DNA of 64,000 nucleotides from NCBI GenBank assembly GCA_019236675.1, contig JAFAIO010000144.1, positions 34-64,033 on the forward strand, in the 5' to 3' direction. Of this stretch, positions 13,447 through 38,981 are shown piece by piece. The DNA is from Verrucomicrobiota bacterium. Lineage in GTDB: Bacteria > Verrucomicrobiota > Verrucomicrobiia > Chthoniobacterales > JAFAMB01. Each line of letters opens with the position of its first letter. Positions within the stretch are counted from its first letter, which is position 1. The position numbers were made by a program, and so were the translations under genes. Under the pieces are notes generated by a model. The model was not told where the DNA came from. It searched no databases and was given only the letters and a program-made list of their open reading frames with translations.

Positions 13447-14193
13447 ATGGAAGGCTGGCTAAGCTCAAGCGCAGGGGGACAGCTCCGATTCGAGACCACG
13501 CATTGGAGCGTAGTCTGCGCTGCCGGCGGAGAAGGCGAGCAGCGCCGAGACGCGCTCGAAGACCTCTATCATCGCTACTGCTACCCGGTTTATTCCTTTA
13601 TTCGCCGGCGAGGCCACAACCGCCAGGATGCCCAGGACTTAACCCATGACTTTTTCATTTATCTCCTGGAAAAAGACGGGTTTAATCGGGCCGCGGCTGG
13701 CCAAGGCAAGTTTCGTACTTTTCTTCTTAGAGCATTAGAATTTTTTCTCAGCCATGCGGGCGAGCGCGCTCGCACTCAGAAACGAGGTGGCCGCACCAAA
13801 TTGGTGTTTCTCGACGACGAAGCCGCTGAAGGCGCTTATCAGCTAATTGATCCCGGTCTGACCGCCGAACAGCTATTTGATGCCCAATGGGCAATGATGT
13901 TGATCGAAAGCACATTCGCTCGCTTGAAACTGGAGATGGAACAGGCTGGGAGACGAGAGCTCTACGATCAGCTATCCGGATTTTTGCTGGGGGGCGAAGA
14001 GACCTCGTATGTTGAAGTAGCTCAACGAATCGGTCTTACCGTCGCAGCGACTAAAGCCGCGATTTATCGCTTGAGAGTTCGGTATCGCGAAATTTTGCGA
14101 GCCGAAGTCGCGCGAACCGTAGCCAGTTCCACAGATTTCGATGCCGAGATTCGCGCCCTCCAGGCCTCCCTCTTAAACGGCTCACAGGGCTAA
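13447..14193 (+). CDS. ECF-type sigma-70 family factor (sigma1), of the STK-linked class.
   Basis: It has region-2-like (DAQDLTHDFFIYLLEK) and region-4-like (YVEVAQRIGLTVAATKAAIYRLRVRYREILR) segments and the N-terminal leader MEGWLSSSAGGQLRFETTHWS. A kinase gene follows 110-116 nt downstream. Confidence 0.85.
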   Translation: MEGWLSSSAGGQLRFETTHWSVVCAAGGEGEQRRDALEDLYHRYCYPVYSFIRRRGHNRQDAQDLTHDFFIYLLEKDGFNRAAAGQGKFRTFLLRALEFFLSHAGERARTQKRGGRTKLVFLDDEAAEGAYQLIDPGLTAEQLFDAQWAMMLIESTFARLKLEMEQAGRRELYDQLSGFLLGGEETSYVEVAQRIGLTVAATKAAIYRLRVRYREILRAEVARTVASSTDFDAEIRALQASLLNGSQG

Positions 14194-14309
14194 GTACCGT
14201 TGCAACAACTTGAAGGTAGGCCGACTCCCGTCTTGCCAACCTCGGCCTTTTCCGATAAAACCCGCTCAGTTCGGGCGTTTTCGTTGGTGGAAATCAGGGA
14301 TTCTTGGCC

Positions 14310-17102: not shown

Positions 17103-17204
17103 GTCGGAGAGGCCGCGCCGCGAGACTGATGTTGGCAACAGGTCTGCCGGCATTAGCCGTCCTTGTATTGCAATCTGGCGCTGATCGTAATACGCTACGA
17201 TGTC

Positions 17205-17444
17205 GTGAAAACGCTTGTGGTGCGAATTGATAACGATCTGAACGCCGAATTGACGAGACTGGCTAACCGACGGGGTTGGACAAAATCTGCTTTCGTTCGC
17301 GAAATGATTCGGCTGTCTCTCTCTTCGCAAACAGCGGCTAAAGGTTCCGCTTACGAAGTCATGCTGGGGGGCGTCGGCTCTATCCGAACTGGGCTCAAAG
17401 ATTTAGGGTCAAATCCGAAACATCTCGAAGGCTTTGGCCACTAG
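17205..17444 (+). CDS. vapB: Ribbon-helix-helix antitoxin (VapB/CopG-like).
   Basis: The sequence KTLVVRIDNDLNAELTRLANRRGWTKSAFVREMIR is RHH-like. The likely start is the GTG at 17205. The stop TAG overlaps the GTG start of the PIN gene by 1 nt. Confidence 0.7.
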   Translation: MKTLVVRIDNDLNAELTRLANRRGWTKSAFVREMIRLSLSSQTAAKGSAYEVMLGGVGSIRTGLKDLGSNPKHLEGFGH

Positions 17445-17863
17445 TGACTCGCGTGATCCTGGATACAGGTCCACTGGTGGCCTTACTAGATGAGAACGAG
17501 TCGTCGCATTCGTGGGCGGCCGAACAGCTCAAAACAATACAGATTCCCTTGATTACGTGCGAAGCAGTGATCGCCGAGGCTTGCTTCCTTTTGCGCTCTT
17601 TTCCCGCGGGAATAGCAAACATCGGCAACTGGATCGAGCGAGAATTCATCGAGCCGCGCTTTGATCTCGCCAGAGAAGCAGAGGCCACTTTCGCTCTCCT
17701 CAAGAAATTTTCCGATGTGCCAATGTCCTTCGCTGACGCGTGTCTGGTCCGCTTATCAACGCAGCATCCGGAACACAAAGTCTTCACCTTAGACAAAGAC
17801 TTTCTCATCTACCGAACAAGTCCGCGCCAACGAATCCCGGTTCTGATGCCTGGGGTTGAGTAA
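17444..17863 (+). CDS. vapC: PIN-domain toxin (VapC-like ribonuclease).
   Basis: VILDTGPLVALLD, a conserved acidic residue in CEAVIAEA, and FADACLV and FTLDKDF together match the PIN acidic quartet pattern. Confidence 0.85.
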   Translation: MTRVILDTGPLVALLDENESSHSWAAEQLKTIQIPLITCEAVIAEACFLLRSFPAGIANIGNWIEREFIEPRFDLAREAEATFALLKKFSDVPMSFADACLVRLSTQHPEHKVFTLDKDFLIYRTSPRQRIPVLMPGVE

Positions 17864-18078: not shown

Positions 18079-18113
18079 CTGCTCACTGCTCACTGCTCAC
18101 TGCTCACTGCTCA
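18079..18113. repeat. Heptanucleotide tandem array (CTGCTCA) x5 plus a partial copy; it contains the stop codon of the giant gene.
   Basis: I counted five perfect copies directly. The minus-strand TGA at 18104-18106 lies in the fourth unit. Confidence 0.95.
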
Positions 18114-21100
18114 CTGCCCCCTTCCTCCCCTCCATACCCCAGCACCTCGACCGTTATCAGCGACGGCGCGACTTCCTGCTCGGTTGCACTTGTCTGTTGT
18201 CTGGCCACTTCCTGCGCGACGCTGCTATTCGCTCCAGCACTATTGCTCGCGGCGATAGCGGCACTGACATTTGGCCCCACGATCGTCGGGAGGCCGACTG
18301 CGTGCCCTTGAACTTGAATGTTCTGCACATGCAAGATTTCCAGAGCCGCAAGTGTTAGATTGCCGGAAACTCGGATACCCGCTTCGCCGGCATCGATGAT
18401 CCCATTGGGTGCGAACAGATCCACGTTCCCCGGCGGCACCCCGGTCACGCCGACCAAGGTTGCGATCCCAGCGCCGGTTTGGGGTGTGGCGGGGATCTCC
18501 GTCATATTGACCCAGAGGTCATAGAGCGTATTGGGAGAACGCGTTACAATTGAGGTCTGTTTACCCTTTCCTGCATTAATGTCTCCGTGGCTCGACCAGA
18601 TCAAAATATCGCCACCCAATTCGGTGAATATGCGTGATTGCGCCACGACGACGCTCTGGTCAGCAACGATATTGATGTTTCCACCTTCCATAGTGATTAA
18701 CCCGGGTTCCGCCGTATCGGTCTGACCTGTCAAGTTTGGAACATCACTTTCGACGCCGAGGACCACTCCACCTCCCGGGACCATAAGGTTGATGTCACCG
18801 CCTTGTTCGGTCCGGATACGCGCATCATGGTAAAGCGTCAGCGACCCACTATAAGCCGTGGTTGGGACACCAGCTGCTACCGAACTACCAGGAAACAGGG
18901 TCTCGATGGCTTTATAACCCCGACTATAACCGACTTTCGTGGCAGCATACGATTCGCCGCCGGCTTTAATCTCATCGAAGTAAATTTCTGAAATGAGTGG
19001 CCATTGTTTAGCAGTCGATAATTGTTCGAAATCAGCTAACGCTTCGACTGAGGTCAGCGTCGAACCCTCGAGCTGATTCATGTAAGCCACGAGCCGAGGT
19101 AGATAATTCTTCTGGACCGACCCTGCGTTCGCCGGATTCAAATAGGTGTTAATAAACCCGGTGATATCCGCTCCGTTCAAGCCAACACCGACCGATATGT
19201 CGATGTTCGCACCGCCCGGGAGTAAGTAGTATGGATTGTCCGTGTTACCGACGCTTTCGATACCGATACCCTGGGTATTGTATTCGCCCGGCTCGGAGAC
19301 GATATTGCGTCCAGCCTGCACCACCAAAGTTCCCGGCCCCTCAACCCGGATATTGAAAACGTCAGTGCCTAAAATTCCGCCGGGTTGTGCGCTTGTGATA
19401 TCTCGTCCCGCTTCTACCAGCGAAGAATCGTTGGGACTCGTGTTTTCGATGTTAAACACCGGCTGAACAATATCTAGACCTGCCCTAATCAACACGCGTT
19501 CTGGCGTTGCCAGCGCCACACTGTTCAGGCTCCCCTCTACCGCATAAACAACCACGGTATGCGGATCATTAGACAGAACCAGATTGGATGGTGGCCCTAC
19601 AAACACATTACCGGCCGGTCCGACCGGTCCAATATATTCGTAAGCATCTAAAATCGTTCCCGGATAGTCGTAACCCGACGGGGCGGCAATCATGCCCAGA
19701 TCAGGAATACCGCTCGGTTGGAGGTAAACCCCATTTGACTCAATGCTCATATCCGCAGCCGTCATACTGACACCGAAGCCCCGGACATCTTGCTGCGCCA
19801 GAATACTCAGGCGGGCGGTTGGTGCAGGCAACGCAACGAGATAATCGCGGAAAGAGAGATCTCCCATGATCGAGCCGTTCGCGGCGACAAATGAAAGGAT
19901 GGGCGGTGCGAAACTACCTAGCACCGTTACGTCGCCACCTGCGGCGAATTCACTGAAAGAGCTGTTGGCAGTCATGCTGCCAAAAAACCCATAAGGTACC
20001 GGCGCATTGGCCGGATCCGTAAGGCCTGGGTTTAGTCCTTCCAAACCCCAGTACTGGGTCCAGCCACCTTCTTGCTCTGCTATGCCATCATTGTTCTGGC
20101 GGAGTGTACGCGTTGGGTCACCAATCAGCCCATAAATATTTTGTTGCGAATAAACGGTAAATTGGGAGTCGCTGATCATAAAATTGACGCGCTCCTGGAC
20201 CCCTTGGCTGTCTACGGCCGTACCCATATCTGCTGCTTCAATCAACGCGGTGCCTTTTCCGACGTAAAGATTGGCATCGTTCAGCGAGCCGCCGACGCTC
20301 AGATTGAGGTTACCACCGCCGGTGATAACTACCTGGTTGTTGCTACCGACTCGCCCCGTGGTTGGCAGGCTCACGTCTACGTTCGTCATGTTACCGCCAA
20401 CGCTGACGTTAACATTGCCGCCGCCGAGCGCACCTAGTCCCAAGAACCCCGCCACCGTTGGCGCGATGTCCGCACCTATGCTGTTTGCATAAGCCATGTC
20501 CTGGTAATAAGTACCGAAATTGATGAACCAGGTGGGACTGGCTTGGTTTGGTTCGGTCCAAAGCCAATAGGGATCGAGCTCGCTTCCGGCATAACCGCCG
20601 AGATTAGTCGATTGGCTGACCAAGCTGCCTTCGACCTTCACGGTTAGATTGCCGCCTCCGGTCGGATAACTTGGGTATAAAGCCGTCGGGTACGTATTGT
20701 CCCAGGGAACGCCGGGCGATTGATAGCCTAGGTAAGAATTGTTTCCGACCACCGACGAAATATATTGGCGGACCGGCATAGTAAATCCGGCGACCGCAGC
20801 CGACGGCTGGCCTGCGGTATAAATCCCGAATTCTGTCTGGATATCAATGTTGTCTGCGGCCGCCAGCTCTAGGTCGCCTGTTCCGGTGCGAACGACGCTT
20901 GGGATTTCTAAAGCGGCGCCAAGAGGCGAGGAACCGTTGCTATCGACCAGGTAGGGAGCATTGAAAATGACGGAACCCGGCTCGGGATCATTCGTGGAGG
21001 CGGCGGGCACGTTAATCGCCGCTATCAAACCGAGCGGGTCCGCAGCCTTTAAATCAGCGCCTCCAATCAAACGCAGGCTCCACGACGGACCACCCGCCAG

Positions 21101-24100
21101 GGGTGCAATGGCGAAGATCGGGCCGTCCGGAGAAACAACCGGCGCGCTAAATCCGTCGCTGAGGCTGCCGTTGATAATCAGATTGTCAGCCGCCCGTAGA
21201 GTTAGGACGCCCGGCGCTCCGTTAAACCGTAGACCTCCCAGATCGATGCCGTCGTTGTAAATGTAACTCGTACCAGCGTACGGATTGCCAGTGCTATTCG
21301 AAGGGTTAGTCAGAAGGGTCAAATTCCCGTTGCTGCGCAGTTCGATTCCCGGCAACAACTGATACGCAGGATTGCTCGCCAAACTACCCAGGCTGGCGTT
21401 GATTGCGCTGGCGTTGGCCATGAAATTGTTAGCATCAACCACCGCCTGGCTCGTTGTCGTCAGATTCTGATCCACATACGGATTGCTGGTTACATCATAG
21501 ACCGCTACCCCTTCCACGATCAGTTTGTCCGCTCCGGCGACAGTCACTCCCTGATTAGAAATGGCGACGCCAGTGTCATTGATTCGGGGTGCTCGCAACC
21601 AGACTTCATTGCCATTCGGCCCTGTCCCCGAAACGTCGATGATCGAGCCGCCGGCTAAAGTCAACGTCCCACTGCTCTTCCCATCCAGACCAAGAAACAC
21701 GATGCCGCCGGCTCCCTCCGTACTCGTGGCGGAAGCATCCAGAATTGCGGTACTTGCCAGCGTCAGATTGACCCCGGCGGTCAGACGGATGGTGCCGCCA
21801 CTCGGACCGCTGGCGTTGATTGTACCGTAAACCAAGACGCTACCGGTTGAGGCGGAAAGCTCGACATCTTGCGCAGTGATATTTCCGACCGAGATATCGC
21901 CGGTTGCCAATGTAAGCGATTGTTCACCGGTAAAAGTAGTAACGGCGCCAAGCAAACTGGAGGCATCACCGGAGTTTAGGTTCAAGATTACTTTGCCTCC
22001 GGTATACCCTTGCGGTGCAGTACCAAGAAAACTACCGCCTAGCTCTGCTGCCCCGTTCGGAGCGATTACCGTAAAAGTTCCTGCGTCACCGCCAGTATCG
22101 GAGTCTGCAACATCCAGATGCGAAACCGTGGTCGAAGAGAGCGAGCTGCCGCTGACATTGACAACGGCGCCCGGCGCGACAACCACGTTGCCATTGGTGG
22201 TTTGCAACGTGAGCGAACCGGCCGGCGCAATCCGAACCACATCAAAAAACGGGGTTATCTCACCGGCTACACTGATGTCCGCACCGCTGCCTAAGGCAAT
22301 ACCGTTCTGGGCCGTGAAGGTAATCGCTCCGGAGGGTAAAACGATCTTAGTATTCTCAACCATCGTCTGTGCATTTACGTTGAGTGTCGCTCCGCCTACG
22401 GCGACCGAAGTCACAGTGGTAACCGTCCCAGACGGGAGAAAGCTCACGGCGCCGCTGGCTATCAGTTGCGTGACCGCTCCAGCGGCATCATTCAGGTTTA
22501 ATCGAGAATTCACTGAAGTCACTAGCGGTGTTTGGATGGTCAGATTACCAAACACGTCGAAAGTCCCCGGGATGATCTCACCGTTGTAGTAAGTTGTACC
22601 GCCTACGGTCTCCCCGGCGTATGCGGTTGCTACCGCTTTACTGCTGGTGACGTCACCGGTCGCGACTAGCATGACGTTGCTAAATCCATTGAACGTCATA
22701 ATGCCTCCGCCTCCCAGGACAACTTCGGTCGCATCAATCGTAAATTGCCCCTGCCCCACGCCTGTACCGCTGGTGGCAAGCGTCGTACCTGTGCCTACCA
22801 ACGTTACTTTCCCTGCCGTAATGGTGACATTATCGCTAGCTCCACCAAACCCGTTGATGGTCGGTGTCTCCAAGGTCAGCTGGGACAGCAACGGCAACCC
22901 GGTGGCACTGTTAACAATGCCCAGACTGGCTGAGCCGTACACATCGATCTCTTGAGTCGCATTCAGGATGAGGTTGCCGGTCGGGACAACCCCATGACTC
23001 GGATCGCCTTGAGACAACGCCGCCAGCAGACTATTCGTTAATATCAAACCAGTGCTAGCCCCGGAACCAAAAGCAATGATCGGAGTCTGGACCGTGACGG
23101 TCTGACCGCCAAACCGCGCGTTAGGATCGATGCTGATATTTTGCGCACCCAAAAATAGCGTGCTGCCTGCGTAAATGCTGGCTCCCGGGTCGACAGTTAG
23201 GGAGGCACTCCCTTCGGTCTGATTAACCGGAAGCGGATTACCTGCTGCATCCAGTACCGCATCCGATACGAGAAGAAATGCACCCGGACTGGTGAGGGTT
23301 ATCGAGCCCAAGCTCGCTCCGGAAATTGGATCGAGTGGGAACTGCGCGGCGATGGGCGCATATCCAGTTGAATCGATTCGTGCGTTTGCCGCCACCGTAA
23401 TCCCTCCGGTAGCTGTTAACATGATCTCAGGCCCGCGTAACACCGCATTCGCATCAACAATAATCGTTTGAGCGGACGGAGTGATATCCACCGAGCTGTT
23501 GGTCGAATCGAAGTTCCGAACGCCGCCAAGTAGCAAGCTCTGTACGCCAAGTGCGTCTAGTTGACTGGCCTGAATGCCGACATAACCAGGCTGCGCGGTG
23601 TCGCCCGGACCCAGGATATCGAGGTTCCCCACCACGATATCAGCTTGCCCGCCTCGCGCTCCGGGTGCATACGAAAAGTTGGTAGCCCCTTGGAAAACAA
23701 AATTGCCGGTGTTAGTCGTGATATCGACTATAAGATGGCCGGCATCCCGCGCCAGATATGGCGTGACTGTGCTAGTAGAAGTTGCCAGCGCAGGAAAGAA
23801 ACTGTCACCCGTCGCTTGTGTGTACTCTGAATACTCTCTGAGGACGGATCCAGGCGACACCAGAAAGACCGACGGCAACGAGTCTTGTACGTCGGTGTTA
23901 GCTACCATCCGATAGCCGATCACTTGATAGGAACCGTCCGCCAACTCGAGATTAGTCAATCCGGCGGTTGTAGTCTGACCAGCTTCAACGCTCAGTTTGT
24001 AGGCTCCAGGCAACAATGCATAATGTCCAGGTAAAAGGGTGTAATCGCCGGCTAGCAATCCCGGAATAGCAGTCAAATAGACTTGATCCCCAACGGTAAG

Positions 24101-27100
24101 GTTGACCGGAGGAGCACCGCCCGCTGCCGGATTGCTACTCTGCATTACCGGGTCGATAGGAGCGTAGTGGTTACCCAGGCTCGGCAGAATGGCGAAGGTC
24201 TCCGTACCGTCCAACGTGTCGGTCGACCCGCCGGATCCACTGATGAACTGCGTTGCATAGATGTCGCCGCCGCCGGATTCATCGATCATCGCCGCCGGCT
24301 TACCACCGCTCGCCCCGGAGATGGTGACGTTTTGGCCGTAGAAGGCGATTAACTTCTGCGGTGGCGCAAATAGGGTGACGCCGTTATAGTTCCATTGATT
24401 AGCACCGAAGGTGGCGCCGTAAGGAATCAGAGTACCATCCGCCGATACCGACGTGATACTGCCGGGCAACAGGTTAATATTTGTTGCTTGGGTGCCGCTA
24501 CTGTTGGAGTTGCCAAATGTGATTTGGCCAAGCGGAGCCAATATAACTCCGCCTTGGTTAATCGTCGGTGCGACAATCTGCACGGCCCCGGCCGCGGACA
24601 GCGGTACATAGGGAGTTACCCCTGTTCTGGCGAAGGTGATAACGCTATTCATTCCGCTGGCCAGAATCTCAAATAGCGTATTGGCGCTAGTAGTGCTGGC
24701 GTTGGATTGCGGCTCACTCGTAACCGGATAAACCTCTGTCGCGGTGAAGTTGAGGTCTCCCAGCGTGGTTAGAAGGCTGGGACCGGCTAGAGCAGCGTTC
24801 ATTGGGACCAAGCGAATGTCACCGGTACTATTGAACGAGACCGTTTTAAAGCCGGCCAGGGAAACCGGATTCGTGGTGAGTGTGCCATTCTGGGAGGTGG
24901 TTGAATTGTACACGCCATTATAGAGGTACTGGTAAGTCGCTCCGCTGCGCAGGAGCCCTTCGATGTCGATCAGGTCAGCGTTGATATTCAGCACCGCGGT
25001 GCCTGCTACTGGCGTGGAGGTAGCGCTCGGTGGCGTAAAAGCGTCAAACCCAATACCGCCGATATACTCCGTAGTCCCCCCTCGTTGACCACCGCCGATA
25101 TTAACATACGGCGCGCTAAGGGTTACCACCGCGCCGTTGAGCGGAGCTACTACAGCGCCGTCACTAATTACGTCCGTCCCCACTTCGGACAAGGCAATAA
25201 CTGTGCCGTCGCCGATGTTGCGCGCGTTAATTCTTAAGCTCTGGGACAAGCTGAAGTTGACGTTACCGTTGAAAATGACCGCATCGACAGCGCCCAGCGA
25301 CGCGCCGCTAAATCCGCTGTTCATTATTTGATCAGCGCCGATGAAGAGTTCGCCCGCATAGGAGCTGGGGATAGCCTGACCAACCTGCAATCCGGTCGAC
25401 AGCATCGGATCGTTCTGGCTAATAACCAGGAGAAAAACCGGCTGCTCAAAGGTAGGATTGCTGGCGTTGCTGGTATAATCTCCAGCAACCTGATCAACGA
25501 TGAAATTACCTCCGGCGGATCTCGGCCCGCCACCCGCCGCCTTCATAGTGGCGTCGAACCACAGCCCCATCGATGCGGTCACGGCGATCGTGCCACCGTT
25601 ACTCGACACGCTGAGCGGATTTATTAGTTTCCCACTTAGATTCGGCTGAAGATATTGATAAAGTGTTCCGTTGGCTCCGGACACATCGATTAGCGCGCCG
25701 GCCTTTGCCACAACTGTTCCCAGCGGTATATCCACGGCCGGTTGATCTTCCGGATATGGATAATACGGTTCCAGATCCTGGTTAATATTAACTGTACCGC
25801 CATCCAGCAGAACATTTGTCACGCTCCCATTCGGGCCGGCAAATGACTGGATCAAGCCCGGGGCAAGCAATCTGGCATCGGAACCGATCCAGAGAGTCTG
25901 TTCGGCCGACGGGAATGGGGCATCGAACGGCTGTCCTGCAAACCCGGCACCGCCCACTGAAACAACTGGCCCGGATGATCCTGTGAGATCCAAGTCGATG
26001 GTGCCGGCCGGAGCGTAAATAGTTCCGTCAATGGTTAGTTGATGCCGCGCGTGTAACGCAATGGTCGCCTGTGGATCAGCATTAATGATCGCGCCATGGC
26101 CAAAGACGAGATCACCCACGAACGCGTCGGTTGCGCTCAACAGCAGGTTCACTGGGCCCGGGAGTTCGTAAGCAGGCGCTCGGCCGATTGGGGCGATGTT
26201 GGCCGGATCAGAGCCGCTAGGGGAGAAAACCGTGCCTCCATTCGGCACAAAATTGATAGCATGGAGCTCCAGGTCTGTGCCATTCGCGATAGTGACACCC
26301 TGGTAGCTATAAAGCGAATATTGACTGAAGCCGGTCGTCGTAAAGAAGCTTGGGCTGAGCAGAAGCGGCGTGGTTACAGAGGAAGGCGTGCCGCCTGTTT
26401 GGGTCATACCACCACCCTGGCTCGTGCTCCCTACTCCAGCTTGGCCGGATAATGGGGGAAGGGAACCACCGATTTGAATACCGGGGGTCACGATAGTCAG
26501 TTGCCCGCCCGCAGTGAAACCGAAGGAGCGTACGATACCATCTAAATACACCTGGGTCGGATAAGTCTCGGGGACGGTTGAACCTTGAGTCGGATCGGAT
26601 GAGCTAGTCTGGAGCGCATAGTCGTCCGCGAGAAGGGTGATATTGCCACCCGTGCCCACCGAGAGACCGTTGCTATTGGCCTTGATTTTGCCATTAATCT
26701 GAACCCAGCCGCCACTAGAAGCGTCAATCACCGCTCCGGTATCGATCCGCACATCATCATAGCTCTCGATCGTTACGTTCCCACCGTTGTAAAGCGTCGG
26801 GATCACTGCGCCTCGATCCACGAAATCGTTTACCCATAGACCACGCGTATCAATCACGCTGCCGGGCTCGAGGACGATGTCGTATGTCGGCGGGGTTAGT
26901 CGGGGTGCGGCATTGTTAGCATACAATGAAACTGAGCCAGCCGGAGCTATGAGGCTCCCGCTGATTGTGATCGCCGGCGTGGTAGTTGTGACTCCGGCTA
27001 CAGTAGTTGTGAGTCCGCCCGTGGCATTGATAGTGATTGATCCTCCCGGGGCCACTTGCACGCTGGCATTTCCAGTGACCTGAAAGGCGCCGGTTGAAAT

Positions 27101-29635
27101 CGAAATGCTGCCATAGCCAGCCTCGTCGAGTAAAGTAGCAGACAGATATAAGGTTTTCTGCCAATCATCCGGCAATGGTGAAGTATCGGAAGCAAAAGCA
27201 GGCGGTGCAACTACCGGTGCGATCACGACTTGGGTCGGGTTCACGGAACCGCCGATAGTTAGCGACCCTGCAGCTGGCAGCGTCGTAGCGGTACGCTGGA
27301 AGGGCCCGCTAACGGCGGAAGCATTGACTGTGGCATCAAGCTCCGAGTAGGTCGACTCAATGGTTAGGCTGCCCGCCGGTTTCCCTTCTACATACGCGCC
27401 TTCGTAGATTTGGTTCGGCAACATCGGGTTCGCATACGATTCGTTTACTCCCCACCGTGGATGGCTCACACCAAAATGATCTCCGATTGAAACATAAGTG
27501 AGGTCGGCGGGAGCGTTATTAACCGTGTAAAGATGTCCGTCAGCACCCAGCAACCACGTTACCGGAACGTACCCAGCTTGATGGTACAACCAGCCGCCCT
27601 CAATATCGATCGACGATTGCGGTCGCAAAATGGTGTCGCCACCCGCGTCAACCGCGATCGAGCCGCCGGTCGTGAGGCGTTGATCGATGGGCCGCTCGGT
27701 TAAACCGAGCCAGCCGGACACCTCGAGTAATCCGCCCGCCGTATATACTTGCTGGCCGGGCACCACCGTATTTAATCCATTGATGTTGACCCACACGTTT
27801 TGGCTTTCGAGGACGCCGTTTCGCTGGAGCGGCGAATCGCGCAACTCGTTGGCCCGCACATTCACTTGAACCGCGTCATCTTGCGCCGGAACCAACACAT
27901 CCCCAAGCCCGGAAACGTCGATTAAAGCGCCGTTATCCACCCAAACCCGGGAAGTATCCAGCGGACTAGTCGGATTCAAACTGCCGGGATTGTCATCGAC
28001 ATAGAGGTTCGTCCCGAGGCTGGAAACCTCGAGCGCAACGTGGCCGGAAGGTGCGAAAATCGTTGCGTTCGATAGCACATTGATCGTCTGGGCCTCTATA
28101 GAGACGATGGATTGCGGCTGAGTTTGCGTGTCCATCGCCATCGCCCCATTTTCCTCGGGCAAGACGGCGGTGATGCTGCCACTCGCCAAGGTCACGGTGC
28201 CGGTTTGGGTTGCAGAGAGGACGTAACCGGTACCTTGGTTATTAGCCACGATGGTCAGCCCGGCGCTCACCAATGTGCCGTTGTAGATCGGGCCGCCGCT
28301 GCCCGCAAATAGCGTGATCGAGCCGGCTTGATCAACCGACGTCGTTGCCGCTAATACCCCGGATTGACGAACGTTCATACCGGTCATCGTGATGTTGCCG
28401 GTTGACGCCTCGACGAGACCGTTGTTGGTCACTGTCCCGCCGTTGTCCATCAATACGGTTACGCCGCGGATGTTTGGGTTGGTACTGGGGGTTAAGTAAA
28501 CGTCGCTGGGAAACGTGTAGGCTTGAGGACTTGACCGGGGTGGCGACAGCCAGTGGTAGGACGAGACGCCGGGCACTCCACTCGAGCCAGCCGGCAGCAC
28601 GACGACGCTTGGTTGACCGGTGGCAGCCAGCACCGTTTGGCCATCCGGCGTGATGATCGAACCGTCATTCTCAACGTCGCTACCAAAAAGATAAATGCTT
28701 CCACCTCCTGTTTTCACGGAGGCTGGTGGGGATGTCTGGATCACGGCGCCCGCCTTGACAACGATATCCCCTGTCGGCCCCGAGTTGTTGACAAAGGTCG
28801 GAGGATTGATGACCGCATAGAAGCCGGCGATTGTGTATGGCTCTTGATTGATTATTCCGGTCAAAAATTGCGCATCCGTGATTCCGACTGCCGACCCGAT
28901 AAACGAATGCGTGTTTACCTGGCTGGAACCACCGAAGATGATCCCATTTTGGTTAATGATGTACACACTCCCTTGAGCGACGATCGAGCCGAGGATTTGG
29001 CTGGGTAAAGCGGCTGGATCCAATACGCGGTTCAATGCGATCCAGGTGTTACCGGAATTGCCGCCGCCGCTCTGATTGAAATACGCGGTTGTATTCTTGC
29101 CGACGTTAAACGTTTGCCAGTTCAGGATCGCTTTCTGCGCGGTTTGCTGGATCGTCACCATGGTCCGCCCATTCGCAACGGATTGAACCGGCTCGCTCGC
29201 TCCTACCCAATCCGCGTTTTGACCGGTCGCGACCTGCAATCCGCCCGGGATCAATCCATTAGGAACTTCCGGCAACTGTTGCTGCGGATTCTGCGGATTG
29301 ACCCCCAGATTGTTAGCACCCGCTAATGCCAAGTTGCGCGCTGCCTTTTGCATTACCTGCACCGACTGGATGGCTTGGTTCGTTCGCGTCAAAATATCGT
29401 TGGCATTGGTCGGCAGCTGCGACAATGCTGCCTGGTTTCCGCCGTAATAGGCAGCCGCGCCCACTGAGGAACTACCAGACGGACCGTCGTGAAGAATGTT
29501 CCCTGTCCCTGCTATACAGGCCTCTGCTAAGAAAAGGGATAGCACTACTAACGAAGTTCGCCTGAAGCTCGCTTCGGAACACCAACTGGAGCGCTGCCTC
29601 GCTTGCGAGGCCGGAGGGGCCGCCACCCTGCTCAC
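18104..29635 (-). CDS. Giant TpsA/FhaB-family exoprotein (about 3,840 aa from the GTG at 29635; the track ORF of 3,914 aa starts at a TTG at 29848). It has a TPS secretion domain, a long beta-helical repeat body and a DUF3739-like C-terminus.
   Basis: TPS-domain motifs: QKAILNWQTFNVGKNTTAYFNQ, WIALNRVLD and VYIINQNGIIFG. The body has thousands of residues of Gly/Asn/Thr-rich beta-helix-like repeats. C-terminal motifs: HGDINAGKGKQT and IDAGEAGIRVSGNLTLAA. No in-frame ATG precedes the signal-like segment RRTSLVVLSLFLAEACIA; candidate GTG starts are at 29635, 29626 and 29545. Confidence 0.85.
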   Translation of the reverse strand: MSRVAAPPASQARQRSSWCSEASFRRTSLVVLSLFLAEACIAGTGNILHDGPSGSSSVGAAAYYGGNQAALSQLPTNANDILTRTNQAIQSVQVMQKAARNLALAGANNLGVNPQNPQQQLPEVPNGLIPGGLQVATGQNADWVGASEPVQSVANGRTMVTIQQTAQKAILNWQTFNVGKNTTAYFNQSGGGNSGNTWIALNRVLDPAALPSQILGSIVAQGSVYIINQNGIIFGGSSQVNTHSFIGSAVGITDAQFLTGIINQEPYTIAGFYAVINPPTFVNNSGPTGDIVVKAGAVIQTSPPASVKTGGGSIYLFGSDVENDGSIITPDGQTVLAATGQPSVVVLPAGSSGVPGVSSYHWLSPPRSSPQAYTFPSDVYLTPSTNPNIRGVTVLMDNGGTVTNNGLVEASTGNITMTGMNVRQSGVLAATTSVDQAGSITLFAGSGGPIYNGTLVSAGLTIVANNQGTGYVLSATQTGTVTLASGSITAVLPEENGAMAMDTQTQPQSIVSIEAQTINVLSNATIFAPSGHVALEVSSLGTNLYVDDNPGSLNPTSPLDTSRVWVDNGALIDVSGLGDVLVPAQDDAVQVNVRANELRDSPLQRNGVLESQNVWVNINGLNTVVPGQQVYTAGGLLEVSGWLGLTERPIDQRLTTGGSIAVDAGGDTILRPQSSIDIEGGWLYHQAGYVPVTWLLGADGHLYTVNNAPADLTYVSIGDHFGVSHPRWGVNESYANPMLPNQIYEGAYVEGKPAGSLTIESTYSELDATVNASAVSGPFQRTATTLPAAGSLTIGGSVNPTQVVIAPVVAPPAFASDTSPLPDDWQKTLYLSATLLDEAGYGSISISTGAFQVTGNASVQVAPGGSITINATGGLTTTVAGVTTTTPAITISGSLIAPAGSVSLYANNAAPRLTPPTYDIVLEPGSVIDTRGLWVNDFVDRGAVIPTLYNGGNVTIESYDDVRIDTGAVIDASSGGWVQINGKIKANSNGLSVGTGGNITLLADDYALQTSSSDPTQGSTVPETYPTQVYLDGIVRSFGFTAGGQLTIVTPGIQIGGSLPPLSGQAGVGSTSQGGGMTQTGGTPSSVTTPLLLSPSFFTTTGFSQYSLYSYQGVTIANGTDLELHAINFVPNGGTVFSPSGSDPANIAPIGRAPAYELPGPVNLLLSATDAFVGDLVFGHGAIINADPQATIALHARHQLTIDGTIYAPAGTIDLDLTGSSGPVVSVGGAGFAGQPFDAPFPSAEQTLWIGSDARLLAPGLIQSFAGPNGSVTNVLLDGGTVNINQDLEPYYPYPEDQPAVDIPLGTVVAKAGALIDVSGANGTLYQYLQPNLSGKLINPLSVSSNGGTIAVTASMGLWFDATMKAAGGGPRSAGGNFIVDQVAGDYTSNASNPTFEQPVFLLVISQNDPMLSTGLQVGQAIPSSYAGELFIGADQIMNSGFSGASLGAVDAVIFNGNVNFSLSQSLRINARNIGDGTVIALSEVGTDVISDGAVVAPLNGAVVTLSAPYVNIGGGQRGGTTEYIGGIGFDAFTPPSATSTPVAGTAVLNINADLIDIEGLLRSGATYQYLYNGVYNSTTSQNGTLTTNPVSLAGFKTVSFNSTGDIRLVPMNAALAGPSLLTTLGDLNFTATEVYPVTSEPQSNASTTSANTLFEILASGMNSVITFARTGVTPYVPLSAAGAVQIVAPTINQGGVILAPLGQITFGNSNSSGTQATNINLLPGSITSVSADGTLIPYGATFGANQWNYNGVTLFAPPQKLIAFYGQNVTISGASGGKPAAMIDESGGGDIYATQFISGSGGSTDTLDGTETFAILPSLGNHYAPIDPVMQSSNPAAGGAPPVNLTVGDQVYLTAIPGLLAGDYTLLPGHYALLPGAYKLSVEAGQTTTAGLTNLELADGSYQVIGYRMVANTDVQDSLPSVFLVSPGSVLREYSEYTQATGDSFFPALATSTSTVTPYLARDAGHLIVDITTNTGNFVFQGATNFSYAPGARGGQADIVVGNLDILGPGDTAQPGYVGIQASQLDALGVQSLLLGGVRNFDSTNSSVDITPSAQTIIVDANAVLRGPEIMLTATGGITVAANARIDSTGYAPIAAQFPLDPISGASLGSITLTSPGAFLLVSDAVLDAAGNPLPVNQTEGSASLTVDPGASIYAGSTLFLGAQNISIDPNARFGGQTVTVQTPIIAFGSGASTGLILTNSLLAALSQGDPSHGVVPTGNLILNATQEIDVYGSASLGIVNSATGLPLLSQLTLETPTINGFGGASDNVTITAGKVTLVGTGTTLATSGTGVGQGQFTIDATEVVLGGGGIMTFNGFSNVMLVATGDVTSSKAVATAYAGETVGGTTYYNGEIIPGTFDVFGNLTIQTPLVTSVNSRLNLNDAAGAVTQLIASGAVSFLPSGTVTTVTSVAVGGATLNVNAQTMVENTKIVLPSGAITFTAQNGIALGSGADISVAGEITPFFDVVRIAPAGSLTLQTTNGNVVVAPGAVVNVSGSSLSSTTVSHLDVADSDTGGDAGTFTVIAPNGAAELGGSFLGTAPQGYTGGKVILNLNSGDASSLLGAVTTFTGEQSLTLATGDISVGNITAQDVELSASTGSVLVYGTINASGPSGGTIRLTAGVNLTLASTAILDASATSTEGAGGIVFLGLDGKSSGTLTLAGGSIIDVSGTGPNGNEVWLRAPRINDTGVAISNQGVTVAGADKLIVEGVAVYDVTSNPYVDQNLTTTSQAVVDANNFMANASAINASLGSLASNPAYQLLPGIELRSNGNLTLLTNPSNSTGNPYAGTSYIYNDGIDLGGLRFNGAPGVLTLRAADNLIINGSLSDGFSAPVVSPDGPIFAIAPLAGGPSWSLRLIGGADLKAADPLGLIAAINVPAASTNDPEPGSVIFNAPYLVDSNGSSPLGAALEIPSVVRTGTGDLELAAADNIDIQTEFGIYTAGQPSAAVAGFTMPVRQYISSVVGNNSYLGYQSPGVPWDNTYPTALYPSYPTGGGNLTVKVEGSLVSQSTNLGGYAGSELDPYWLWTEPNQASPTWFINFGTYYQDMAYANSIGADIAPTVAGFLGLGALGGGNVNVSVGGNMTNVDVSLPTTGRVGSNNQVVITGGGNLNLSVGGSLNDANLYVGKGTALIEAADMGTAVDSQGVQERVNFMISDSQFTVYSQQNIYGLIGDPTRTLRQNNDGIAEQEGGWTQYWGLEGLNPGLTDPANAPVPYGFFGSMTANSSFSEFAAGGDVTVLGSFAPPILSFVAANGSIMGDLSFRDYLVALPAPTARLSILAQQDVRGFGVSMTAADMSIESNGVYLQPSGIPDLGMIAAPSGYDYPGTILDAYEYIGPVGPAGNVFVGPPSNLVLSNDPHTVVVYAVEGSLNSVALATPERVLIRAGLDIVQPVFNIENTSPNDSSLVEAGRDITSAQPGGILGTDVFNIRVEGPGTLVVQAGRNIVSEPGEYNTQGIGIESVGNTDNPYYLLPGGANIDISVGVGLNGADITGFINTYLNPANAGSVQKNYLPRLVAYMNQLEGSTLTSVEALADFEQLSTAKQWPLISEIYFDEIKAGGESYAATKVGYSRGYKAIETLFPGSSVAAGVPTTAYSGSLTLYHDARIRTEQGGDINLMVPGGGVVLGVESDVPNLTGQTDTAEPGLITMEGGNINIVADQSVVVAQSRIFTELGGDILIWSSHGDINAGKGKQTSIVTRSPNTLYDLWVNMTEIPATPQTGAGIATLVGVTGVPPGNVDLFAPNGIIDAGEAGIRVSGNLTLAALEILHVQNIQVQGHAVGLPTIVGPNVSAAIAASNSAGANSSVAQEVARQQTSATEQEVAPSLITVEVLGYGGEEGGSEQ

Positions 29636-29664
29636 CGTCGGCCTCGCAAGCGAGGCAGCGCTCC
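29588..29664. repeat. Repeat family B, compact copy: perfect 26-bp inverted repeat with a 25-nt loop.
   Basis: GGAGCGCTGCCTCGCTTGCGAGGCCG (29588-29613) is the exact reverse complement of 29639-29664. The flanking 2 bp also pair. Confidence 0.9.
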
Positions 29665-29857
29665 AGGACTGCACTTGGTGAGCGGAGTACCCCCCATCTT
29701 TAGTAGAGAACGCGAGTTCTAGTTTTCTATGGTTACAATCTCGCGAAGTCTCGGCTACCTGCTTCGAGCGTCGTAAAAAGTTCCCCACACCGCACTTAAT
29801 GCGGAATTCTTCTGCGAATGGGGCCAGAAATTTTCCGCCTCGGGGCAACCCTTGTTT

Positions 29858-29907: not shown

Positions 29908-32811
29908 TTACTTCTCGCTCAACGAATCTGGCGTAAGTTGCTGCAAGTTATTCTCGGCCCTAGAAATTTCTCTCGCCAGGTCTCCACGCAACAAGATCGC
30001 TTTGCCATCTCGGGCGCGATACAAGACCTGAAGACCACGCTCGATGTATTTGCGCCCCTCTTCTTTCTCGCCCGTCTTTGCGAGCGAGTTTCCATAGCTG
30101 GCCAGCACTTCCCCATACAACGCGCTCTCTGGCGGGAAATCTCTAACTCGAATGTTCTGCTCCGCTAATTCCAAAGCCTGCTTGAACCAGCGACACGCTT
30201 CTTTGGAGTCCGCGGTTGCTTCCGCTACCTCTCCTTGGCCCGCGTAGAAACCGGCAAGTAGGAAGCGCTGGTCTGGTGAGTCCACATTTTGCCTGGCGAC
30301 TTCTTCTGTGAGTGGGGCTAAAACTCGCGAGTTAATTTGTTTAGCGTTCTCGAAATCCCCGGATCTTGTGTAGCACTCCATCAGGTCGAGTCCGACCATC
30401 CCGAGCCACTCCTTGGCCCAGTGAGGAGGTCTAGGCTGGTGGTTTACCTTTTCGGCCAAATCAACTGCTTCCCTCAGTAATCTGGCCGCTTCCTGATATT
30501 GGCCCTGGTCGATCAATAAAAGACCGTAGTTGTTTAGACCCACTATCAAGTCTTGCTCGAAATAGGCATTATTCGGATCGACGGTGCACAACCTCCGAAG
30601 GACCGCTATCGCCTGATCAGCGAGATCCGATTTCTCGTGGGTCGGATCGAGGCAGAACAGCAAACAGCCCCAACGCCCAATCGCTCGTTCTGAACGAAAT
30701 TTGAGAGCGGCATTATCGGCGGCGTGCTCAGCGGCATCACGGCGAATAGCCAGCGCTGTTCGAATAGGCGCCTGAAACGCGGCAGCATCTCCGCGATCGA
30801 GCTGACGCACACCTAAAGCTTCCAAGCTGCTCGCGTAGGAATCGATGATATCGGGATCATCGGGCGCCAATTTGTACGCCCGTTGTCCGTAGGCTACGGC
30901 TTCATTCAAGAAGCGCAGCGTATCCTCTGCGTTCGCGGCCCGGCCAAGCATGTAGCCTTTCAGCGCAAGAGAATCGCAAAGGCTAGCCTGCAACAATGCT
31001 TGAGCGCTACTCGGCAACCCGCTGCTCGTCTCTAAGGAGCGCAGTCTGACAAATGCCTCGTCTAAAACTTTGAGTGATGCTGCCGACTCACCTGCTTTTC
31101 CAAAAGCCCGCGCCTCTTCATAAACTGCTTTCGCTAGTACCAGCTTGTCGCCAAGGTCCGTAGATAGCAGGCACAAAGTCCTGGCCTGGGCTTCCGCCTT
31201 TTCGGCTCGTTGAATGGCCGTGTGGCCGTCACCCATTTCTTCCAGAGCGCGCGCCAAAGTGATTTCGGTTTGCACCTTCGCTCGGATCTGTCCCGGACTG
31301 CGGGCTGGATCACCGTCGCCACGGCTAGTCGAATCGATTCGATCGAACACCTGGACCGCCTCCTTCAGCACTTCAAGCCGATGTTCCACCGGAGCAGCCA
31401 TTGTTTCCAATCGAGTGGATAGAACGCCGATCATGTTGCGGGCCGAAGAAGCCGCCAACTCACGCTGTTGCAGTGCGTAATCACGTTCCTTCCGAACTGC
31501 GCGATAGGAAGCCAATGTTATCCCGAGTGCAATCATTCCGGCTACAACTGTTATGGACGTGGCAATCGTTGCCGTCGGATGGCGCTGGATTAATCTCCGC
31601 ATTCGATAGCCCCAACTCTCCGGACGAGCGGCCACTGGGCGGCACTCCAGGAAATTCTGGAGGTCATCGACGAAATGCTCGACGCTCTTGTATCGGTCAG
31701 CCGGCTGTTTCTGCAGCGCCTTTGATATGATGGCTTCGAGATCAGTTCTTCGTGATTTGGGAATGCTGATACTTGTTTCTTCCGATCGTACCGGCAGCCG
31801 TTTAGGTTCACCTTTACAAATCCTTTCTAACAGTTCGAATCCACCGGCAGCCTCGTTTTCCGTAATTGGGCTGAACGGATGAGAACCGGCAACGAGCTCA
31901 AACAAAATGATCCCGAGCGAAAAAATGTCGGCGGCGGTGGTAATCTCCTCGCCATGAATCTGCTCAGGGCTGCTGTACCGAGGCGTTAATGGCCCGAGCC
32001 CGATCGTACGGTCCTGAGGGCCAGACTCTTGCTCAGACACGAGCGTTTTTGCGATCCCGAAGTCAATCAACCGCGGGGTGCCGTCGCTAGTAACAAGAAT
32101 ATTTGAAGGCTTAAGGTCCCGATGGACCACCAGGTTTTTGTGCGCATACGAAACCGCGGAACAGACCTTACAGAACAGTTCGAGAATCTGGTACAGATCG
32201 CGGCCCTTATTCCGACAGTAAGCCTTGATCGGTTCGCCGTCCACGTACTCGATGGCGAGGTAAGGCAATCCGTTCTCCAGGGCGCCTCCTTCTAAGAAAC
32301 GAGCAATGAAAGGATGGTTCAACCGCGCCAGAATCCGGCGTTCTCTCCGGAACCGGGAGATAAACAGTCGAGGATCGATCGGCTGGCGCATCACCTTGAT
32401 TGCTGCGCGTTGGATCGAGAGTCCATCGTTGTCGAAGGAGCGTTCAGCTAGATAGACGGTGCCCATTCCGCCCCGAGAAATCTCACGTAGAACGCGCCAA
32501 GAGTCGATCAGGGTTCCCGGTTGAAGAGTCTCTGGCGGTGCCAGTTGGTCATCTGATTCTTCGCTCTCGTCGAGAAGCCCAAGCTCGGATTGCAAAGCAG
32601 GAGTTTCTAGAAATTGGTCCTCCGAATTGGCATACCTTAGTAATGAAAGGAGCTCCTCCGCTAACTCAGGGTTCTGAGCGCGCCTTTCATTTATCCAGGT
32701 GACGCGCTCACTCGGGTGCATCTCGACTGCTTCCGCGAACAAGCTCCTTAACTCCACGGATTCAAATGAGAGTCCACTCTGCGGGTAACCGTCTGAAAGA
32801 TGGCTGCGCAT
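29908..32811 (-). CDS. Transmembrane Ser/Thr protein kinase (STK3) with a long TPR-like extracytoplasmic or C-terminal region.
   Basis: It has kinase motifs HRDLKPSNILV, DFGIAK and SPEQ, and one TM segment (ATIATSITVVAGMIALGITLASY). Helical repeats extend to the C-terminus. It starts 17 nt after the sigma3 stop. Confidence 0.9.
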   Translation of the reverse strand: MRSHLSDGYPQSGLSFESVELRSLFAEAVEMHPSERVTWINERRAQNPELAEELLSLLRYANSEDQFLETPALQSELGLLDESEESDDQLAPPETLQPGTLIDSWRVLREISRGGMGTVYLAERSFDNDGLSIQRAAIKVMRQPIDPRLFISRFRRERRILARLNHPFIARFLEGGALENGLPYLAIEYVDGEPIKAYCRNKGRDLYQILELFCKVCSAVSYAHKNLVVHRDLKPSNILVTSDGTPRLIDFGIAKTLVSEQESGPQDRTIGLGPLTPRYSSPEQIHGEEITTAADIFSLGIILFELVAGSHPFSPITENEAAGGFELLERICKGEPKRLPVRSEETSISIPKSRRTDLEAIISKALQKQPADRYKSVEHFVDDLQNFLECRPVAARPESWGYRMRRLIQRHPTATIATSITVVAGMIALGITLASYRAVRKERDYALQQRELAASSARNMIGVLSTRLETMAAPVEHRLEVLKEAVQVFDRIDSTSRGDGDPARSPGQIRAKVQTEITLARALEEMGDGHTAIQRAEKAEAQARTLCLLSTDLGDKLVLAKAVYEEARAFGKAGESAASLKVLDEAFVRLRSLETSSGLPSSAQALLQASLCDSLALKGYMLGRAANAEDTLRFLNEAVAYGQRAYKLAPDDPDIIDSYASSLEALGVRQLDRGDAAAFQAPIRTALAIRRDAAEHAADNAALKFRSERAIGRWGCLLFCLDPTHEKSDLADQAIAVLRRLCTVDPNNAYFEQDLIVGLNNYGLLLIDQGQYQEAARLLREAVDLAEKVNHQPRPPHWAKEWLGMVGLDLMECYTRSGDFENAKQINSRVLAPLTEEVARQNVDSPDQRFLLAGFYAGQGEVAEATADSKEACRWFKQALELAEQNIRVRDFPPESALYGEVLASYGNSLAKTGEKEEGRKYIERGLQVLYRARDGKAILLRGDLAREISRAENNLQQLTPDSLSEK

Positions 32812-32828
32812 TTCAGAATCCTATGTCT

Positions 32829-33464
32829 CTACTGCGTCAGATTCAGTCGCCGCTTAAGCCAGGCCTTGGCGAACTGCCAATCTCGTTTAACCGTCCGGGC
32901 AGATACGCCGAGAATCTGTGCGGTTTCTTCGACGGTCATTCCGACAAAAAAACGAAGCTCAACCAGGCGACTCAAATCGTCGCCATGGTGAGCCAATTCC
33001 TTGAGTGCCGAGTCCAGTTCTACAAGGTCGACCGACTGGCTATTTGGCTCGGCCAAATCAACAAGGCCGGATTCAAACGAAATCTTCGTCGCGTTACCGC
33101 CACGTTTCCAGGCATTTCGGTTGCGTGCGCGATCCACAAGTATTTGGCGCATCAACCGGCTCGCGACCGCAAAAAAATGCGAACGATTGTTCCAATCGAT
33201 ATTCTGGGCACCGACAATCCTGAGATAGGCCTCGTGAACAAGCTCTGTCGGCTGTAACGACTTGGCGGCCCAATCCTTACCTAGGGCATCGTCAGCGAGC
33301 TGTCGAAGCTGGTCGTAAATTCGCTCGGTCAGACTTTCCAGAGCCGAAGCGTCGCCTTCTCTCCAGCGCCCGAGGAGCTCTGTGATCTCGGTGTGAGTTT
33401 CGTTGGATGAGGGTGGCTGTTTATCAGACAGACTCCGACGCGATCCGTGCAGACAGGCTTGCAT
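32829..33464 (-). CDS. ECF sigma factor (sigma3) resembling the TIGR02999-type family.
   Basis: Diagnostic segments are ITELLGRWREGDASALESL, WNNRSHFFAVASRLMRQILVDRARNRNAWKRGG and MTVEETAQILGVSARTVKRDWQFAKAWL. Confidence 0.85.
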   Translation of the reverse strand: MQACLHGSRRSLSDKQPPSSNETHTEITELLGRWREGDASALESLTERIYDQLRQLADDALGKDWAAKSLQPTELVHEAYLRIVGAQNIDWNNRSHFFAVASRLMRQILVDRARNRNAWKRGGNATKISFESGLVDLAEPNSQSVDLVELDSALKELAHHGDDLSRLVELRFFVGMTVEETAQILGVSARTVKRDWQFAKAWLKRRLNLTQ

Positions 33465-33573: not shown

Positions 33574-33763
33574 GTGGAGCGTTGCCTTGCTTCCGCCTTC
33601 GCCAAGCCTACGGCGCGACAGGTCGCGAGGCCGATGCGGTAGGCACCCGTGGAGCGGTTGCCGCGCTTGCGAGGCCGATAAGCGGTCGGCAACCGTGGAG
33701 CGCTGCCGCGCTTGCGAGGCCGATAAGCGGTCGGCAACCGTGAAGCGCTGCCTCGCTTACGCC
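33574..33763. repeat. Tandem amplification (units of 45-46 bp) of the left arm of repeat family B.
   Basis: The units are at 33649-33694, 33695-33739 and a partial one at 33740-33763. A degenerate unit lies at 33574-33648. Confidence 0.8.
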
Positions 33764-33935: not shown

Positions 33936-33961
33936 TCGGCCTCGCAAGCGAGGCAGCGCTC
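33936..33961. repeat. Right arm of repeat family B (CGGCCTCGCAAGCGAGGCAGCGCTCC).
   Basis: It is identical to 29639-29664. Confidence 0.85.
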
Positions 33962-34010
33962 CACAGAAGGCTGAGGCCGACCCGAACCAGGCAACCGCCG
34001 GCCCGCCGGG

Positions 34011-36104: not shown

Positions 36105-36116
36105 ATTCTCTTGTTG

Positions 36117-38912: not shown

Positions 38913-38981
38913 TGCTTTTACCTTTCGATACAGAACTTGTGTCATCTGCGGTTTGTTTTGGGCTTGATACATGGCCGTTCC

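Follow-up and report, generated by a model that had tools for sequence, protein, structure and literature searches.

How is a giant exoprotein exported when no gene for its transporter lies beside its own? This question is raised by a 64,000-nucleotide stretch of Verrucomicrobiota DNA (contig JAFAIO010000144.1 of assembly GCA_019236675.1, positions 34 to 64,033; hereafter the window), which holds the gene of a giant TpsA protein belonging to the two-partner secretion (TPS) type. A TpsA exoprotein requires a cognate TpsB, composed of POTRA domains and a 16-strand barrel, whose gene usually lies nearby. An initial annotation of the window had described the giant protein as an orphan without TpsB, preceded by the genes of a sigma factor (sigma3) and a kinase (STK3) in the position where a TpsB gene was expected. 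We consider it likely, with some room for doubt, that the giant gene encodes a functional PdtA-type TpsA whose TpsB has its gene in another part of the genome, probably along with those of ExbBD, a TonB-like protein and a porin. A transporter missing from a single 64-kb metagenome contig is ordinary, and the orphan reading is weak.

The giant gene and its product

The gene and its two diagnostic domains are located as follows.

18104..29635, minus strand: giant TpsA-type exoprotein gene of the PdtA/PUMA3-associated family (open reading frame, Pfam and colinearity)
28613..29179 (approximate), minus strand: TPS secretion domain (Pfam PF05860, E=1.1e-18, 68.5 bits, cut-off 33.5)
18284..18616 (approximate), minus strand: DUF3739 domain (Pfam PF12545, E=4e-32, whole profile length)

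The list of open reading frames (ORFs) confirmed the giant frame on the minus strand, where it remains open as far as TTG 29848 (full ORF 18104..29848). Translation likely starts at GTG 29635, the start called in a sequence-identical ENA contig (L001), giving a protein of 3,843 aa from a frame that is unbroken across 11.5 kb. The N-terminal TPS domain proposed initially matched the hidden Markov models (HMMs) both of Pfam and of NCBIfam (TIGR01901, adhes_NPXG; 61.7 bits vs a cut-off of 29.1), and the residues of its motifs NWQTFNVG, ALNRV and YIINQNGIIFG are invariant in a 23-sequence family alignment. The assignment of the C-terminus to the DUF3739 class was likewise upheld. Judged by its domains, the giant protein is a genuine type Vb (two-partner secretion) TpsA of the TPS+DUF3739 family. 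Ahead of the conserved AGTGNIL it carries a basic stretch and the hydrophobic, signal-like LVVLSLFLAEACIA; the start codon is uncertain on account of an insertion with REP-like elements (see below).

Between the two domains, the initial annotation had described thousands of residues of beta-helix-type repeats. This description holds for the last 599 aa, the part to which our AlphaFold2 (AF2) model extends (pLDDT 79.7, pTM 0.82). The model shows beta-helix coils with an inserted helical bundle at model residues 247-336, followed by beta-helix through DUF3739, one helix and a disordered tail; a Foldseek search of the PDB with it gave nothing below E=0.2 and only weak generic beta-helix matches. 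The approximately 3,000 residues between the TPS domain and the modelled C-terminus are colinear with relatives. The protein ends (window 18104-18200) in ...PSLITVEVLGYGG, a tail that is found family-wide with the consensus PSxIxVEVLGYGG (50-sequence alignment) and is positioned past DUF3739, after the predicted helix. This tail may be a sorting or retention signal; we are aware of no description of it.

BLASTP aligned the giant protein colinearly with its orthologue at locus L089 (85% identity), with the giant of Bradyrhizobium macuxiense (L013; 52% identity across 3,814 aa) and with that of Bradyrhizobium genosp. A (L016; 46% identity), and it matched verrucomicrobial giants at about 30% identity with a better-conserved C-terminal block. 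Its size fits the PdtA/PUMA3-associated TPS+DUF3739 family, in which about 3,700-4,100 aa is usual. When compared with L089, the gene displayed a dN/dS of 0.10 at a dS of 0.81, with values of 0.09-0.11 in every sixth of its length. From the dN/dS of 0.10 we conclude that this is a functional, working gene, and a pseudogene reading was rejected on the same ground. Unbroken orthologues are present in at least three further lineages. The closest relatives form a clade of four lineages with approximately 84-90% mutual identity.

Two side observations concern descent and assembly quality. Along its full length, the giant protein is much nearer to its Bradyrhizobium counterparts (46-52% identity) than to the giants found in other Verrucomicrobia (about 30%; L013, L016, L022, L023 and L038 compared), which suggests either inter-phylum transfer or a taxonomic label of the metagenome-assembled genome (MAG) that needs a check. 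At L005/L006 (ENA ERZ25039470 contig_3423), an 86%-identical orthologue is split among about 18 fragments of the frame; since the 'contig_N' naming suggests a long-read assembler, indel errors seem a better explanation than a pseudogene. In that case, the short proteins ('TPS-only', 'DUF3739-only') that such assemblies contribute to databases would be artefacts.

Transporter genes and gene neighbourhoods across the family

A transporter gene was sought on the contig in several ways. Pfam detected no POTRA_2, ShlB or Omp85 domain among the window proteins (all ORFs of at least 400 aa and most of the shorter ones), and an HMM specific for the TpsB of this family gave no match in any stop-to-stop frame of at least 50 aa in the window, end-cut frames included. 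On this point the initial annotation stands. HMMs for nine accessory families gave no match in the window, in L001-L006 or in L088-L090. It should be underlined that the window is practically the entire 64,053-bp contig of a MAG, and that 'none in 64 kb' means none on the contig; since the contig stops at the window ends, absence of TpsB from the genome cannot be claimed. The sigma factor and a DUF1349 protein encoded in the window have exact counterparts at NCBI, MBV8212908.1 and MBV8212912.1, from a MAG labelled Verrucomicrobia/Verrucomicrobiota.

The family was surveyed for its usual gene context. The locus set comprised at least 160 loci, obtained by homologue search with 600-aa N- and C-terminal queries, for which species-representative genomes and metagenome contigs were scanned once each. 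The context survey covered the 135 listed loci with a large giant ORF, 112 of them informative; ORFs were clustered and representatives annotated. The listed loci were distributed as follows.

87 of 135: canonical cluster upstream, whole or cut by the contig end
16 of 135: STN/TonB-ECF sigma-FecR module directly upstream, TpsB not in view
9 of 135: nothing in at least 8 kb upstream
23 of 135: too little upstream sequence

The canonical order is TpsB (POTRA_2 + ShlB), ExbB (with DUF2341 + LamG), ExbD, a protein of about 239 aa with STN and TonB C-terminal domains, Porin_5, a coiled-coil protein, often a peptidyl-prolyl isomerase (PPIase) and the giant TpsA; it was seen in most Verrucomicrobia and in Bradyrhizobium L016. 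The second layout, found mostly in Bradyrhizobium, including giants that are colinear with the window protein at 52% identity, consists of STN/TonB_C, an extracytoplasmic function (ECF) sigma factor, FecR and the giant TpsA, without TpsB in the 7-10 kb visible upstream. In the comparison with relatives that had been proposed for this position, the canonical cluster, whole or cut, preceded the giant gene at the 87 loci of the first group and was missing from the close-clade loci in view. In 9 of the 112 informative loci neither the sigma/FecR module nor the TpsB cluster was present, so that the context is typical and not universal; Pfam gave nothing informative on the nearest upstream ORFs of these nine loci without accessory genes.

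Some further properties of the cluster were observed in passing. Relatives (L023-L087 and L091-L167; e.g. L035:1749-9835) keep the accessory set even where no sigma/FecR genes are visible: it includes an ExbB with fused DUF2341 and LamG domains, a Porin_5 protein and a VreA-like protein of the STN+TonB_C type. A 431-aa protein without Pfam family (e.g. L076:1206-2501) often precedes TpsB.

Complete, annotated plasmids display the same separation of TpsA from TpsB. Sixteen plasmids carry a family TpsA; in 11 of these a TpsB of at least 40% identity is present too, at a spacing that ranges from about 0.2 kb (Methylomagnum) to about 34 kb; at least four carry TpsA without a family TpsB. On the Klebsiella quasipneumoniae plasmid pKqq_SB98_1 the genes are ordered STN protein, sigma factor, FecR, TpsA, then STN-like protein, sigma factor, DUF4880 protein, TpsA, then ShlB/FhaC, ExbB, ExbD, TonB, putative porin and, further on, PPIase. 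The 938-kb Variovorax boronicumulans plasmid NZ_CP138497.1 has three matches to the TpsA N-terminus and is not among the 35 plasmids that match the family TpsB; the copy inspected is preceded by a hypothetical protein (STN), a sigma factor and FecR, and neither the 13 kb upstream nor the roughly 4 kb downstream contain a TpsB. The TpsA proteins of both plasmids, each a 'filamentous haemagglutinin family protein' of about 3,900-4,100 aa, resemble the window protein (33-35% identity to its N-terminus). Unlike in the window, their regulator is a sigma/FecR anti-sigma pair, and in Klebsiella the TpsB cluster adjoins the second copy. A database protein (P0069) has a TPS domain fused with a FecR-type DUF4880 domain.

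These layouts recall the PdtA/PdtB-PUMA3 system of Pseudomonas aeruginosa (VreA-VreI-VreR; PA0674-PA0676 and PA0690-PA0699), which has a giant TpsA as well. VreA, a protein of about 23 kDa, combines a signalling domain (STN) with a C-terminal domain of TolA/TonB type; its gene accompanies those of VreI, an ECF sigma factor, and VreR, a regulator of FecR type, and overexpression of VreI raises the expression of tpsA (PA0690), tpsB (PA0692), exbB2, exbD2, PA0696-PA0698 and the PPIase gene PA0699; the same locus contains a tonB homologue, PA0695 (Llamas et al. 2009, PMC2729926). The pdtA gene has a promoter of its own, which depends on VreI and PhoB (Quesada et al. 2016, PMC4971064). Relatives of the window gene share gene sets and order with PUMA3, namely VreA-like/ECF sigma/FecR before tpsA and tpsB-exbB-exbD-tonB-like through to PPIase. 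In contrast, the window gene has no VreA, FecR, TpsB, ExbBD, TonB-like or porin gene on its contig, its neighbour is a kinase-type ECF sigma pair, and its host is labelled Verrucomicrobiota. Rhodopseudomonas palustris and Janthinobacterium have four copies of the PUMA3 cluster, three preceding a tpsA and the fourth preceding tpsB-exbBD (PMC2729926, PMC4971064), several sigma-linked tpsA copies thus sharing one distant tpsB. Because of these published copies, a tpsA located beside an ECF sigma module and away from tpsB is a pattern already described in 2009 (PMC2729926). Orphan status is not supported as an unusual trait: TpsB is missing on the visible side in 25 of the 112 informative listed loci, at least four plasmids have the TpsA without a family TpsB, and the pattern has been published.

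Export by a transporter encoded at a distance has precedent as well. Bordetella (FhaB/FhaC with FhaS) and the systems of Neisseria and Haemophilus, where several TpsAs rely on one TpsB, provide cases of a tpsA that has no tpsB next to it and depends on a TpsB encoded elsewhere; certain TpsBs export more than one TpsA (TPS review, PMC5422565). The TpsAs of these genera belong to a different subfamily from the window protein. To our knowledge, DUF3739, ExbBD/TonB-like accessory genes and an ECF sigma module are all lacking from their systems.

The sigma3/STK3 pair and the upstream region

The following features lie upstream of the giant gene, apart from the first, which encloses its predicted start codon, and the last, which lies downstream of it.

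29588..29664, no strand assigned: inverted pair of a REP-like 27-nt element (copy count and fold)
29760..29838, minus strand: conserved non-coding block (about 75 nt) ahead of the giant gene (four-sequence DNA alignment)
29908..32811, minus strand: STK3, transmembrane Hanks-type Ser/Thr kinase with tetratricopeptide repeats (TPR) (Pfam Pkinase E=1.3e-41, and TPR)
32829..33464, minus strand: sigma3, ECF sigma factor of the kinase-associated type (PF07638 E=4.1e-52; TIGR02999 208 bits, cut-off 126)
17163-17863, plus strand: convergent RHH/PIN pair (Pfam)

Pfam confirmed that STK3 and sigma3 are the immediate upstream neighbours on the same strand, with 272 bp between the STK3 stop and GTG 29635. 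STK3 has its kinase domain at aa 106-375 and a hydrophobic span at about aa 432-455, followed by approximately 500 aa of helical/TPR sequence. In sigma3, the alignment places QPTE at the position of the canonical ECF motif DAED, which puts a Thr in the DAED-equivalent position. By sequence, the two fit a kinase-activated ECF sigma pair, with no anti-sigma factor and a phosphorylatable residue in place of DAED. They resemble EcfP/PknT (ECF43-type) of Vibrio parahaemolyticus and EcfK/PknS of Xanthomonas citri in that an ECF sigma gene stands beside that of a transmembrane Hanks kinase without an anti-sigma factor, in that DAED is replaced by a Thr-containing motif, and in that the pair adjoins a secretion-related gene. 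Sigma factors linked to such kinases are activated by phosphorylation, and EcfK/PknS controls a type VI secretion system (PMC8999054). Sigma3 itself is of the TIGR02999/PF07638 type, and its likeness to these systems is one of sequence and gene arrangement.

The kinase is directly upstream of the giant gene in two of the four close lineages, the window species (with L001-L004) and L090 (about 86% identity). No other locus among the 167 listed has a kinase or sigma3-like gene upstream. The pair does occupy the place described in the initial annotation; the slot itself is more aptly described as that of VreA-like/sigma/FecR in relatives from Bradyrhizobium, Variovorax and Klebsiella than as that of TpsB. 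By analogy with these proteobacterial sigma modules, and from the adjacency, control of the giant gene by sigma3/STK3 is plausible. The link is favoured because the genes stand back-to-back on the same strand, because the arrangement is kept in L090 and because relatives have a sigma-plus-regulator in that slot. Adjacency alone is nevertheless weak evidence, as the pair is present in two of four lineages, no motif is shared and the window holds three such pairs.

All four close lineages share the block of about 75 nt, irrespective of the gene that precedes it, and its nhmmer profile finds the window copy at E=2.5e-24. It is taken as non-coding because the corresponding frame of L089 has a stop codon. 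The block is probably the giant gene's own promoter or 5' leader, a candidate proposed from conservation, and since it is common to all four lineages the giant gene appears to travel with its own upstream element. Scans for sigma-70 promoters and for terminators performed no better than on shuffled sequence.

Closer to the start codon lies the inverted pair of the GC-rich element resembling repetitive extragenic palindromes (REP; GGAGCGCTGCCTCGCTTGCGAGGCCGA), which has five copies in the window vs 0 expected, the others at 33697-33723, 33936-33962 and 47051-47077. The inverted pair folds as a 28-bp hairpin (-81 kcal/mol, z=-6.7) and belongs to an insertion of about 55 codons that the alignment shows to be missing from the orthologue L090. 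Upstream of sigma3, three copies of a related 45-nt unit form a tandem array (33625-33758).

The remainder of the window shows what else surrounds such pairs. ECF sigma/transmembrane Ser/Thr kinase pairs are located at 13447-17102(+), 29908-33464(-) and 46985-51290(+), each adjoining genes for secreted proteins: an FG-GAP protein (11783-13225), sedolisin/S8-type peptidases (34011-41828 and 44555-46972) and the giant TpsA. The other two sigma factors, sigma1 and sigma2, differ in type from sigma3: at the DAED position they have DAQD where sigma3 has QPTE. Large peptidase genes, six in number and paralogous, are distributed over 5230-9550(+), 34011-41828(-) and 44555-46972(-); a Pro-kumamolisin activation domain occurs in four of the six products, accompanied in three by S8 and fn3, and the other two match S8 only, one of them with a weak PPC match besides. 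A 446-aa ORF without Pfam family at 1332-2672(+) resembles, by phmmer, the non-kinase extracytoplasmic part of STK3 and looks like a kinase-less paralogue of its sensor domain. An Rfam scan of the window returned zero families.

Downstream, the convergent neighbours of toxin-antitoxin type reported initially are the RHH/PIN pair listed above. A reading of the giant protein as CdiA (contact-dependent inhibition) was considered and rejected: there is no pretoxin or toxin match in Pfam, the C-terminus consists of the family-conserved DUF3739 and ...VEVLGYGG, and in place of a same-strand immunity gene the downstream genes are this convergent pair.

Routes of export and control

If the giant protein is a PdtA-type TpsA with its partner encoded elsewhere, it would leave the cytoplasm by Sec, and a PdtB-type TpsB would then thread it across the outer membrane. 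This TpsB would most likely come from a distant TpsB-ExbB-ExbD-STN/TonB-Porin_5 cluster, on which more than one TpsA paralogue may depend. The giant gene would be transcribed from its own conserved upstream block. More tentatively, sigma3 and STK3 would take the role of the proteobacterial VreA/VreI/VreR cell-surface-signalling module, with STK3 sensing an envelope signal and then phosphorylating and activating sigma3.

Several observations weigh against this picture, in part or as a whole. As regards export, no TpsB from this organism itself was seen, in a view limited to one contig, and TpsB and all other accessory genes are missing in three independent contexts of the close clade, i.e. the window, L005/L006 (10 kb on either side; in L006, TpsB is also absent from the 10 kb downstream) and L089 (7 kb upstream). 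The link to PA0690 is itself inferred, from the synteny of relatives and the statement on homologues in PMC2729926. As regards expression, the predicted GTG start sits in the loop of the very stable REP hairpin, whose stem covers the GAGG upstream, and this hairpin could gate translation of the giant gene. As regards control, nhmmer detected no significant second copy of the upstream block in the window and none upstream of sigma3; the best second match (41956-41993, ahead of the peptidase gene 38982-41828) is partial and non-significant (E=0.48). Enumeration over ten upstream regions gave no convincing ECF-like bipartite motif shared with the region upstream of sigma3. Moreover, L089/L088 and L005/L006 (81-86% identity) retain the upstream block without the sigma/kinase pair; what precedes it there is a set of two to four permease genes of the MacB/FtsX type together with a gene for an ABC ATPase. 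Sigma/kinase pairs are also dense, with three in 64 kb, so that a chance adjacency of sigma3/STK3 is not negligible.

The absence of TpsB, ExbB/D, STN/TonB and Porin_5 near the gene in all three close-clade contexts, together with the strong purifying selection on a gene that nonetheless has no partner in view, would also fit a lineage without any dedicated PdtB-type transporter, in which the protein reaches the surface through a BamA/TamA-type Omp85 or another system, or has a periplasmic role. We consider this very unlikely. The TpsB-recognition motifs of the TPS domain, invariant in the family and whole here, would make little sense without a TpsB, complete replicons of relatives show TpsA far from TpsB or on another replicon, and the three genomes were in view over stretches of about 64, 31 and 19 kb. 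We know of no established TpsB-independent export of a TpsA, a point that we also count against this explanation. Even less probable is that the window holds a recently transferred, stranded and partnerless copy heading for decay. The 52% identity to Bradyrhizobium vs about 30% to verrucomicrobial giants would agree with such a transfer, as would the insertion of about 55 codons, missing from L090, with its -81 kcal/mol hairpin over the start codon; set against these are the frame that is unbroken over 11.5 kb, the dN/dS of 0.10, even along the gene, between lineages at a dS of 0.8, and the unbroken orthologues in at least three further lineages. The initial annotation had left open whether the TpsB is encoded elsewhere or another route is used, and the comparative data favour the former.

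Whether sigma3/STK3 acts on the giant gene was judged separately from the question of secretion. The adjacency may be incidental, with the giant gene under its own promoter and other control and the pair regulating other neighbours, e.g. the upstream peptidase genes; to our minds this explanation has a substantial chance of being right, slightly short of an even one. It agrees with the MacB/FtsX-type ABC genes that precede the same block of about 75 nt in L089 and L005, with the lack of a kinase or sigma3-like gene at all other listed loci, with the three pairs in 64 kb, each beside other secreted-protein genes, and with the lack of a motif common to the sigma3 upstream region. It agrees less well with the same-strand, back-to-back arrangement over a 272-bp gap that is kept in a second lineage, L090, at about 86% identity, and with the presence of an ECF sigma module in exactly this slot in three proteobacterial genera; in lineages where it is not adjacent, a sigma3 orthologue could act in trans. 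The full combination of a lineage without PdtB-type transporter, another export route and a kinase-activated ECF sigma factor replacing VreA/VreI/VreR as the switch appears highly improbable. The locus is mildly novel in one respect only, a kinase-type sigma pair standing where relatives have a module of the VreA/VreI/VreR type.

If the giant protein is indeed served by a TpsB in trans, the finding would be a routine one that adds a verrucomicrobial member to the PdtA/PUMA3-type family, and the tpsA genes of this family would move as a unit with their own upstream block of about 75 nt. The family retains the TpsB-ExbB-ExbD-STN/TonB-porin cluster throughout Alpha-, Beta- and Gammaproteobacteria and Verrucomicrobia, and single tpsA copies are repeatedly paired with an ECF sigma module. 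If sigma3/STK3 is functional here, an anti-sigma-based module would have been exchanged for a phosphorylation-based one before the same cargo.

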